Assembly (NCBI RefSeq): GCF_045037415.1
Contig: NZ_CP173438.1
Strand: one strand, 5' to 3'
Source: Escherichia coli
Lineage (GTDB): Bacteria > Pseudomonadota > Gammaproteobacteria > Enterobacterales > Enterobacteriaceae
Length of the DNA: 64,000 bases
Positions within the stretch are counted from its first letter, which is position 1, and each line of letters starts with the position of its first letter. This document shows, piece by piece, positions 59,201-62,200 of this stretch. A program made the position numbers.

Positions 59201-62200
59201 AACACTTGCAAAACTGACATAAATCTCCAGAGATGTGTTCAGGAGTTAGAAAGATTATTTCTTCTATTCTAGACAAATCCCCCTCTGATTGACAGCATCA
59301 CTGACCAATCGCAAAGATTGCTAAGGCTGCTTATGGCAGGGAGATAAGGATGGTCGATACAGAAATTTGGCTGCGTTTAATGAGCATCAGCAGCTTGTAT
59401 GGCGATGATATGGTCCGTATAGCTCACTGGCTGGCAAAACAGTCGCATATTGATGCGGTTGTATTGCAGCAAACAGGGCTTACATTGCGGCAGGCACAAC
59501 GCTTTCTTTCATTTCCGCGAAAGAGTATCGAAAGCTCACTTTGTTGGTTGGAGCAACCCAACCATCATTTAATCCCTGCGGACAGCGAATTTTATCCTCC
59601 TCAACTTCTGGCGACGACAGATTACCCCGGCGCACTGTTTGTTGAAGGAGAACTGCACGCGTTGCATTCATTTCAGCTTGCCGTAGTGGGGAGTCGGGCG
59701 CATTCATGGTATGGCGAGCGATGGGGACGATTATTTTGCGAAACTCTGGCGACGCGTGGAGTGACAATTACGAGTGGACTGGCGCGTGGAATCGATGGTG
59801 TGGCGCATAAAGCGGCCTTACAGGTAAATGGCGTTAGCATTGCTGTATTGGGGAATGGACTTAATACCATTCATCCCCGCCGCCATGCTCCACTGGCTGC
59901 CAGTCTACTTGAGCAAGGTGGTGCTCTCGTCTCGGAATTTCCCCTCGATGTTCCACCCCTTGCTTACAATTTCCCACGAAGAAATCGCATTATCAGTGGT
60001 CTAAGTAAGGGTGTACTGGTGGTGGAAGCGGCTTTGCGCAGTGGTTCGCTGGTGACAGCACGTTGTGCGCTTGAGCAGGGGCGTGAAGTTTTTGCTTTGC
60101 CAGGTCCAATAGGGAATCCGGGAAGCGAAGGGCCTCACTGGTTAATAAAACAAGGTGCGATTCTTGTGACGGAACCGGAAGAAATTCTGGAAAACTTGCA
60201 ATTTGGATTGCACTGGTTGCCAGACGCCCCTGAAAATTCATTTTATTCACCAGATCAGGAAGACGTGGCATTGCCATTTCCTGAGCTCCTGGCTAACGTA
60301 GGAGATGAGGTAACACCTGTTGACGTCGTCGCTGAACGTGCCGGCCAACCTGTGCCAGAGGTAGTTACTCAACTACTCGAACTGGAGTTAGCAGGATGGA
60401 TCGCAGCTGTACCCGGCGGCTATGTCCGATTGAGGAGGGCATGCCATGTTCGACGTACTAATGTATTTGTTTGAAACCTATATTCACACAGAAGCTGAGT
60501 TGCGTGTGGATCAAGACAAACTTGAACAGGATCTTACCGACGCAGGATTTGATCGAGAAGATATCTACAATGCCCTGCTTTGGCTGGAAAAGCTTGCGGA
60601 TTATCAGGAAGGACTGGCAGAACCGATGCAACTGGCCTCTGATCCACTCTCCATGCGTATTTATACCCCTGAAGAGTGTGAAAGACTGGATGCCAGCTGT
60701 CGTGGTTTTTTGCTTTTCCTTGAGCAAATTCAGGTGCTTAGCCTTGAAACCCGTGAAATGGTGATAGAGCGAGTGCTCGCGCTGGATACCGCAGAGTTCG
60801 ACCTGGAAGACCTGAAATGGGTAATCCTGATGGTGTTGTTCAATATTCCGGGTTGCGAAAATGCGTACCAGCAAATGGAAGAATTACTCTTTGAAGTGAA
60901 TGAAGGTATGCTGCATTAATCATTTCTTTAATTCAGCATAAGTTGTTATGGCGAAATCAGCACTGTTCACGGTGCGTAATAATGAGTCCTGCCCAAAGTG
61001 CGGGGCTGAACTAGTTATTCGATCCGGGAAACACGGTCCGTTTCTTGGATGCTCACAGTATCCGGCATGTGGCTACGTCCGTCCTCTGAAATCTTCAGCG
61101 GATGGACATATTGTCAAAGTTCTGGAGGGGCAGGTTTGCCCTGCATGTGGCGCAAATCTGGTATTACGCCAGGGACGCTTTGGTATGTTTATTGGTTGCA
61201 GTAACTACCCTGAATGCGAACATACCGAACTTATCGATAAACCGGACGAAACAGCAATTACATGCCCCCAATGCCGGACGGGCCATCTGGTTCAGCGCCG
61301 CTCCCGTTATGGCAAAACATTTCACTCCTGTGATCGCTACCCGGAGTGTCAATTTGCCATTAACTTCAAACCCATAGCTGGAGAATGCCCTGAGTGCCAT
61401 TATCCGCTACTCATCGAAAAGAAAACCGCGCAGGGTGTAAAACACTTTTGTGCCAGTAAACAATGTGGAAAGCCGATTTCGGCGGAATAATAACGTGAAT
61501 AATAACCTGCAAGGAGACGCTATCGCAGCTGCGATAGATGTCCTCAATGAAGAACGTGTCATCGCCTATCCAACGGAAGCCGTTTTCGGTGTCGGGTGCG
61601 ATCCTGATAGCGAAACAGCAGTGATGAGACTGTTGGAGTTAAAACGGCGTCCGGTTGATAAGGGGCTGATTTTAATCGCGGCAAATTACGAGCAGCTTAA
61701 ACCCTATATTGATGACACCATGCTGACTGACGCGCAGCGTGAAACCATTTTTTCCCGCTGGCCAGGTCCTGTAACCTTTGTCTTTCCCGCGCCTGCGACA
61801 ACACCGCGCTGGTTGACGGGCCGCTTTGATTCGCTTGCTGTACGAGTCACCGACCATCCGTTGGTGGTTGCTTTGTGCCAGGCTTATGGTAAACCGCTGG
61901 TTTCTACCAGTGCCAACTTGAGTGGATTGCCACCTTGTCGAACAGTAGACGAAGTTCGCGCACAATTTGGCGCTGCGTTCCCGGTTGTGCCTGGTGAAAC
62001 GGGGGGGCGTTTAAATCCTTCAGAAATCCGCGATGCCCTGACGGGTGAACTGTTTCGACAGGGGTAACATAATGGAAACCTATGCTGTTTTTGGTAATCC
62101 GATAGCCCACAGCAAATCGCCATTCATTCATCAGCAATTTGCTCAGCAACTGAATATTGAACATCCCTATGGGCGTGTGTTGACACCCATCAATGATTTC

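Follow-up and report, generated by a model that had tools for sequence, protein, structure and literature searches.

Zinc ribbons without a topoisomerase: YrdD of Escherichia coli as the probable retained tail of a dprA-linked topA

Introduction

What does a protein do that consists of the tail of a topoisomerase and nothing else, and why does its gene stand in a cluster that begins with dprA? The question is raised by yrdD, which lies on the plus strand at positions 60948-61490 of a 64,000-nucleotide stretch of Escherichia coli DNA (NCBI RefSeq assembly GCF_045037415.1, contig NZ_CP173438.1), referred to here as the window. An initial annotation, made from the sequence alone, described the gene as four tandem topoisomerase-type C4 zinc ribbons with no catalytic domain, and suggested an accessory role in binding single-stranded DNA (ssDNA) or other nucleic acid. 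The 180-amino-acid open reading frame (ORF) on which it was based is borne out by both the ORF list and RefSeq: it runs from an ATG start to a TAA stop and is annotated as yrdD, 'DNA topoisomerase family protein' (WP_001296461.1). The nature of the protein, i.e. its four ribbons and ssDNA binding, has already been published, and the gene is already named and annotated; COG0551 is named after YrdD. What we add is a correspondence between the chromosomal slot of yrdD and that of a topoisomerase I gene, topA, in other Gammaproteobacteria, which is moderately supported, new and not found stated in the literature that we searched.

Domain architecture of YrdD

All 16 cysteines of YrdD fall in four C-x2-C-x16-18-C-x4-5-C units, the spacing of C4 ribbons, and the units open, as first described, with CPKCG (first cysteine at residue 15), CPACG (64), CPQCR (106) and CPECH (147); the ligands of ribbon 1 are spaced C15-x2-C18-x16-C35-x5-C41. 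Over the whole protein there are four stretches of match to the Pfam family PF01396 (Zn_ribbon_Top1, also Topo_C_ZnRpt), with 178.8 bits and E=1.4e-53, well past anything that chance would produce, and the assignment to topoisomerase-type ribbons is thereby supported by domain search. When the ribbons were scanned singly, ribbons 1, 2 and 3 scored 60.8, 71.6 and 62.5 bits, all above the curated gathering threshold of 32 bits, while ribbon 4 stayed below it (16.6 bits, E=0.007) and covered only profile positions 2-21. The second half of ribbon 4 reads FCASKQCG and not GCSxYPxC, and lysines stand at both sites where an aromatic residue would be expected (K165, three residues before the third cysteine, and K171, three after it). 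The single consensus initially proposed for all four repeats, CPxCG...GCS.YP.C, is therefore a fair description of ribbons 1-3 and not of ribbon 4. Pairwise comparison gave 63% identity between ribbons 1 and 2 and 40-50% between ribbon 3 and either of them; the similarity of ribbon 4 to ribbon 1 or 2 was not significant (z 1.5-1.7). Judged by sequence, the pattern is one of three canonical ribbons and one divergent C4 ribbon. A recent internal duplication was considered and is excluded by the DNA-level identity between repeats, which is 51-56%. The parts of the gene are as follows.

60948-61490, plus strand: yrdD coding sequence (ORF list; RefSeq WP_001296461.1)
60948-60983, plus strand: N-terminal tail, residues 1-12, probably disordered (AlphaFold2 confidence below 50 for residues 1-10; dN/dS 0.235)
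60984-61079, plus strand: zinc ribbon 1, residues 13-44, with C15, C18, C35 and C41; K28-H29-G30-P31-F32 and Y38
61131-61226, plus strand: zinc ribbon 2, residues 62-93, with C64, C67, C84 and C90; G76-R77-F78-G79-M80-F81 and Y87
61257-61358, plus strand: zinc ribbon 3, residues 104-137, with C106, C109, C128 and C134; R120-Y121-G122, F125 and Y131
61380-61475, plus strand: divergent zinc ribbon 4, residues 145-176, with C147, C150, C168 and C173

An AlphaFold2 model of YrdD, computed with 31 homologues, has a mean predicted local distance difference test score (pLDDT) of 77.7 and places a beta-hairpin between two cysteine knuckles in every unit, so that the zinc-ribbon fold by which PF01396 is defined is found in YrdD; the first 10 residues are disordered, and confidence peaks over ribbon 4, at about 92. 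A Foldseek search of the model against the Protein Data Bank (PDB) returned 9gdh_F, 4rul_A and 9gda_F, all of them chains of E. coli topoisomerase I, as the best matches (E 3e-5 to 2.5e-4), and sequence matches among solved structures were confined to the C-terminal domains of E. coli TopA.

The catalytic parts of a topoisomerase were looked for in the 180-residue protein with Pfam. TOPRIM (PF01751) gave no match at E<=1, and there was no match to Topoisom_bac (PF01131), the cleavage/religation domain that carries the catalytic tyrosine, in line with the claim first made for this gene. Just 12 residues precede ribbon 1, and among NCBIfam models YrdD matches only the C-terminal ends of those for topoisomerase I, far below their cut-offs. 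Because it has neither a TOPRIM nor a cleavage domain, YrdD cannot cut or relax DNA; it consists of four zinc ribbons only and is not a topoisomerase. Public records give many homologues of about 180 residues (P0012, P0024, P0046, P0066, P0119, P0400 and others) the name 'type I DNA topoisomerase' or 'DNA topoisomerase 1'; as these proteins have no catalytic domain, the labels are a systematic over-annotation.

Conservation and selection

Is such a protein still in use, or is its gene what is left of a truncated topA, without function and simply retained with its operon? The yrdD locus was found in 5425 of 5426 complete E. coli genomes, and bases 60400-62100 of the window are 100% identical to several of them. 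For comparison across species, contigs were scanned with the Smg alignment as anchor, and the best 80 loci, all from Enterobacterales, were taken for the analysis of conservation and of the ratio of nonsynonymous to synonymous substitution rates (dN/dS). The order dprA-smg-yrdD-tsaC-aroE was present in 76 of the 80 genomes and yrdD followed smg in 79, with four intact C4 motifs in 76 of the 79 yrdD ORFs. Pairwise dN/dS against E. coli was 0.067 overall across about 70 species. All ribbons and linkers are constrained, the ribbons lying at 0.05-0.10, with ribbon 4 the second lowest segment (0.058) and the N-terminal tail the least constrained (0.235).

These values contradict the relic explanation, to which we give almost no credence: it would have to account for 16 invariant cysteines, for the retention of the family across several gammaproteobacterial orders and for the YrdD peptides that have been seen by proteomics. 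In its favour are the lack of any yrdD phenotype reported in the literature searched and the dispensability of yrdD in at least one reduced genome. The latter is that of Pantoea sp. Nvir, a symbiont of the stinkbug Nezara viridula, where yrdD has decayed to a pseudogene remnant (L091:5466-6015; MSKSALFTLRKQAICP..., followed by stops, 34% GC) while smg and tsaC on either side are intact; yrdD is thus dispensable in a reduced symbiont and not needed for tsaC. The other exceptions to an intact yrdD were a truncation at a contig end and a record of Kluyvera genomosp. 3 YDC799 with frameshifts (CP022114.1; L061:5490-6050). In the Kluyvera record the gene is spread across three frames, each piece is well conserved and the match to tsaC is partial as well; this looks like assembly indel errors rather than a true pseudogene. 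We conclude that yrdD is a functional gene under strong purifying selection, though dispensable in a reduced genome.

Predicted DNA contacts and metal binding

The DNA-binding ribbons of TopA each hold about 3 nucleotides non-specifically through three elements, namely an aromatic residue on strand beta3 (F616 in D5, Y728 in D7, F780 in D8), a glycine-flanked R-(F/Y) pair in the beta2-beta3 turn and an aromatic residue after the third cysteine (PMC4678816; PMC9369019). The corresponding residue set of PF01396 is present in ribbons 1-3 of YrdD and absent from ribbon 4. Ribbon 1 has K28-H29-G30-x-F32 and Y38, with F32 aligned to F616 of TopA D5; ribbon 2 has G76-R77-F78-G79-x-F81 and Y87, in a motif that matches the ssDNA-contacting R724-F725-G-K-Y728 of TopA D7; and ribbon 3 has R120-Y121-G122-x-x-F125 and Y131. 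Across 31 Enterobacterales sequences most of these residues are invariant, F32, Y38 and F125 among them, as are all 16 cysteines.

A passage of PMC4678816 that cites work from 2014 describes YrdD as having four 4-Cys ribbons and Zn(II)-dependent ssDNA binding. The ssDNA-binding role put forward in the initial annotation agrees with that description, and with the report that YrdD, like TopA, binds iron and zinc (PMC6495748). Taken together with the conserved residues, the literature makes it most likely that zinc-loaded YrdD binds ssDNA through ribbons 1-3. By analogy with TopA D5, D7 and D8, each of the three would stack on about 3 nucleotides irrespective of sequence, and the protein would coat roughly 9-12 nucleotides of unpaired DNA. 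Ribbon 4 has lysines in place of these aromatics (K165, K171) and is unlikely to contact DNA in this manner; since it lacks the stacking residues and yet is highly constrained, it would probably be a module for protein contact or capping that was inherited from a TopA tail.

The same cysteines allow a different reading, in which YrdD is mainly metal-responsive: four Cys4 sites would take up iron or zinc according to supply, and the metal would either switch DNA binding or simply be buffered. The 16 invariant cysteines do amount to four potential sites, and the group that studied YrdD reports that excess zinc displaces iron in vivo (PMC6495748). However, the Cys4 ribbons of TopA are structural zinc sites (PMC4678816), iron loading of YrdD may be a by-product of over-expression, buffering gives no reason why aromatic and basic DNA-contact residues should be invariant, and no regulatory link of yrdD to Fur or Zur was found. 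We regard a mainly metal-responsive role as improbable.

Relatives among topoisomerase I tails

If YrdD is an ssDNA-binding arm, from which topoisomerase might it derive? Among 1.84 billion cluster representatives (50%-representative), 7355 relatives were found at E<=1e-3, and the best 150 of these comprised 56 stand-alone proteins of at most 230 residues, 33 full-length TopAs, 26 partial TopA fragments and 35 core-less proteins longer than 230 residues. Separate searches for homologues of YrdD and of Smg were of little use for distribution, all of the closest 120 listed being from Enterobacterales. Several TopAs of 756-773 residues match residues 8-180 of YrdD in one colinear stretch, and in the full-length TopA relatives TOPRIM was found by Pfam. 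In a Coxiellaceae TopA of 759 residues (P0289, HCU05088.1), for instance, residues 590-752 align with YrdD 12-174 at 46% identity (169 bits, 2 gaps), and the protein ends in the same divergent ribbon as YrdD, CPDCGWPILTIKTTKKNGTEKVCPQKNCG. The tails of these TopAs of other Gammaproteobacteria, about 756-773 residues long, generally resemble YrdD in having four ribbons in the same order with a divergent last one, at 40-47% identity over residues 12-174 with 2 gaps; the difference lies upstream, where they carry a TOPRIM and Topoisom_bac core and YrdD has only its 12-residue tail.

The tail of E. coli TopA itself is a much poorer counterpart. Its D5-D9 domains (4RUL; 9GDA-9GDH) share with YrdD the C4 fold, the beta3 aromatic residue and the R-(F/Y) stacking residues, but they are made up of three C4 ribbons and two Cys-less ribbon-like domains, and D6 contains a long insert and a helix. 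The best alignment reaches 28% identity (45 bits, 26% gaps) and offers no counterpart to D8-D9. Having four C4 ribbons and no ribbon-like pair, YrdD is not a copy of this tail, and the idea that the tail of E. coli TopA was recently duplicated was rejected on the 28% identity. From the zinc ribbons of transcription proteins (TFIIS, RPB9, TFIIB/Brf) YrdD differs in its topoisomerase-type signature, tandem layout and DNA-stacking motif.

The resemblance to TopA also raises an alternative in which YrdD acts at RNA polymerase (RNAP), docking on beta' or at the upstream fork of the bubble, where it would either be a competitor of TopA or tag the under-wound DNA in the wake of the enzyme. The C-terminal ribbons of TopA have been reported to interact with RNAP (PMC4678816), and in structures from cryo-electron microscopy D5 contacts beta' and D7-D9 bind the single-strand/double-strand junction of the bubble (bioRxiv 10.1101/2024.10.07.617030); the YrdD model comes closest in fold to such RNAP-TopA complexes (9gdh, 9gda, 9gdc). 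Expression of yrdD, moreover, tracks supercoiling: the gene is repressed by chromosomal relaxation (PMC545778) and is listed among those induced by hypernegative supercoiling (PMC8301835). Nevertheless, YrdD is only 28% identical to the E. coli ribbons and is without the D8-D9 ribbon-like pair that occupies the junction, the RNAP-TopoI interface is weak, flexible and probably species-specific (bioRxiv 10.1101/2024.10.07.617030), and no YrdD-RNAP interaction was found reported in the literature searched. We consider a role at RNAP unlikely.

Stand-alone YrdDs with a named source come from Enterobacterales, Vibrio, Mergibacter (Pasteurellaceae), Pseudoalteromonas, Succinimonas/Succinivibrio and Thorsellia. 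Two sequences that seemed to be independent truncations among the TopA tails (P0264, P0324) were rejected as fragments at the ends of contigs of about 1 kb with TopA D4-like sequence upstream. Within the wider family, eight proteins (P0352, P0357, P0358, P0369, P0374, P0375, P0379, P0385), exemplified by WP_169335165.1 of Succinimonas amylolytica, have extensions of 200-440 residues rich in Ala, Gln, Ser, Thr and Glu, which match no Pfam domain, are probably disordered and lie at the N-terminus in most of these proteins, P0358 having one at either end. Three others, P0245 (380 residues), P0250 (282) and P0256 (583), contain Zn_ribbon_Top1 repeats only and no catalytic domain, with 5-6 Pfam stretches each; the C4 motif count in P0256 is 9.

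Gene order and origin

The position of the gene is the second line of evidence. In RefSeq the order on the plus strand is dprA, smg, yrdD, tsaC, aroE and yrdB, and the cluster described initially as smf-smg-yrdD-tsaC-aroE is annotated accordingly, smf being dprA. Related loci from other bacteria were found to be arranged as follows.

Coxiellaceae metagenome-assembled genome (L002): dprA-topA, with fmt-rsmB nearby
L008 and L014: dprA-smg-topA
L011 and L012: dprA-topA-tsaC
L013: dprA-yrdD-tsaC-aroE
Vibrionaceae (L005): dprA-smg-yrdD

In each related locus with upstream sequence to view, dprA stands ahead of topA or yrdD, and the slot of topA, after dprA or dprA-smg and before tsaC, is the slot of yrdD. 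The linkage is not confined to these loci: in Neisseria meningitidis dprA-smg-topA is a co-transcribed operon, and dprA-topA linkage has been reported in 14 of 24 phyla (PMC5817196). The E. coli-type topA sits elsewhere, at cysB. The colinearity with the TopA tails and the shared slot indicate that yrdD is probably a tail left over from an ancestral topA linked to dprA. The proposed course of events is that yrdD would be the remainder of a topA in a dprA-(smg)-topA-(tsaC) operon, whose catalytic 5' part would have been lost toward Enterobacterales, Vibrionales, Pasteurellales, Alteromonadales and Succinivibrionaceae, lineages which with yrdD would use a different, E. coli-type topA located elsewhere. 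The link to DprA from which a nucleic-acid-binding role had initially been suggested is better explained by inherited dprA-topA synteny than taken as direct evidence of a role in transformation. A search for a CRP-S (Sxy) competence site found none within 3 mismatches of the consensus in the intergenic region upstream of dprA, near-matches (2-3 mismatches) falling only inside def.

The neighbours have their own history. The smg gene (DUF494) stays between dprA and topA or yrdD in distant Gammaproteobacteria (L005, L008, L014), and the function of Smg is therefore likely tied to DprA and/or to the topoisomerase tail. One marine gammaproteobacterium, unclassified, has an 8-nucleotide overlap between tsaC and the 3' end of a full-length topA (L011:6770-6777; L012:6734-6741).

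Operon setting and the tsaC junction

Within the window the genes around yrdD are packed as follows.

59350-60474, plus strand: dprA (smf), the first gene of the cluster (annotation)
60446-60919, plus strand: smg (DUF494), overlapping dprA by 29 nucleotides and ending 28 nucleotides before yrdD (annotation)
61488-61497, plus strand: TAA stop of yrdD, the 4-nucleotide spacer TAAC and the GTG of tsaC (sequence; RefSeq tsaC start)
61495-62067, plus strand: tsaC, encoding threonylcarbamoyl-AMP synthase, tightly linked downstream (annotation)

The stop codon of yrdD had been thought to abut the GTG of tsaC. This needs correction, since the TAA at 61488-61490 is followed by TAAC and only then by the annotated GTG at 61495. 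The 29-nucleotide dprA-smg overlap and the later gaps of 28, 4 and 4 nucleotides fit a single operon with translational coupling at the yrdD-tsaC junction. A promoter and terminator scan of 59150-63200 gave no signal above shuffled expectation inside the cluster, which is consistent with one operon and no proof of it, and an Rfam scan of both strands of 59100-63300 found no RNA family. The antisense ORFs at 61164-61400 and 61407-61562 are unsupported. The longest tsaC ORF begins at a GTG at 61450, 41 nucleotides inside yrdD, against the RefSeq start at GTG 61495, and the longest aroE ORF begins at GTG 62045, against the annotated ATG at 62072; when ORFs are called mechanically, both genes come out too long.

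In 78 other genomes the commonest spacings at the yrdD-tsaC junction were -8 nucleotides (26 genomes), +4 (16) and -11 (9), mostly with a GTG start. The commonest overlap among Enterobacterales is thus the same 8 nucleotides as in the topA-tsaC pairs of the marine gammaproteobacterium, and the coupling of tsaC to a preceding ribbon-coding gene may for this reason be ancient.

A near-overlapping junction would also be explained if YrdD were a nucleic-acid (tRNA) binding accessory of TsaC in t6A37 synthesis. The distance from yrdD stop to tsaC start lies between -11 and +4 nucleotides in most of the 78 genomes, the two genes are adjacent even away from dprA (L010, L096), and two independent YrdD::TsaC fusions were found, P0255 (419 residues, L096:4001-5260) and P0337 (369 residues), in which four ribbons are followed by a Sua5/YciO/YrdC domain. 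Each fusion, however, is known from a single contig that was assembled automatically from a read archive (SRR3401381 for P0255), and may be real or an artefact of a single indel or point change by which the yrdD stop codon was lost. Furthermore, a full-length topA can likewise stand directly before tsaC (L011/12), which makes the linkage older than YrdD; purK-purE lie between yrdD and tsaC in Vibrionaceae; and the Pantoea symbiont keeps tsaC and smg intact beside its yrdD pseudogene (L091). A role as an accessory of TsaC seems to us very improbable.

Discussion

The explanation that best accounts for the evidence is that YrdD is a free-standing topoisomerase ssDNA-binding arm, the remnant of an ancestral dprA-linked topA, which acts as a single-strand binder; as a whole, we hold it with moderate confidence. 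Its weakest step concerns the substrate. YrdD would bind single strands that under-winding lays open or that DprA handles, a proposal that is consistent with the topA-like response of the gene to supercoiling and with its inherited place after dprA-smg.

Several observations weigh against this explanation or narrow its base. Most of the related loci lie on metagenomic contigs with no secure taxonomic assignment, and because the genome scan gave only Enterobacterales, the taxonomic pattern rests on few named sequences. A neighbour-joining tree sets the stand-alone YrdDs apart from the TopA tails, but the split received only 26 of 200 bootstrap replicates; a single origin of yrdD by in-place truncation is accordingly suggested and monophyly is not claimed. 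The geometry of DNA binding is transferred from E. coli TopA ribbons to which YrdD is just 28% identical. No in vivo function or phenotype of YrdD was found in the literature searched, and the biochemistry of Cheng et al. (2014) is cited here second-hand. Finally, iron occupancy in vivo might mean that YrdD does something different from DNA binding.

Why would the tail have outlived its enzyme? One possibility, which we put forward tentatively and with more doubt than belief, is that yrdD is an in-place topA remnant and that strong selection preserved it once the catalytic core was gone, the four-ribbon arm having a separate function that involves its former neighbours. It could pass ssDNA to or from DprA or Smg, or serve in trans as the strand-holding arm of a ribbon-less topoisomerase core. 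If this is true, it would be the tail of the topoisomerase, and not its catalytic core, that takes part in the interaction behind the widespread and so far unexplained linkage of dprA and topA. The match of slot and tail thus offers a testable lead both on the purpose of YrdD and on the linkage of dprA and topA in many bacteria.

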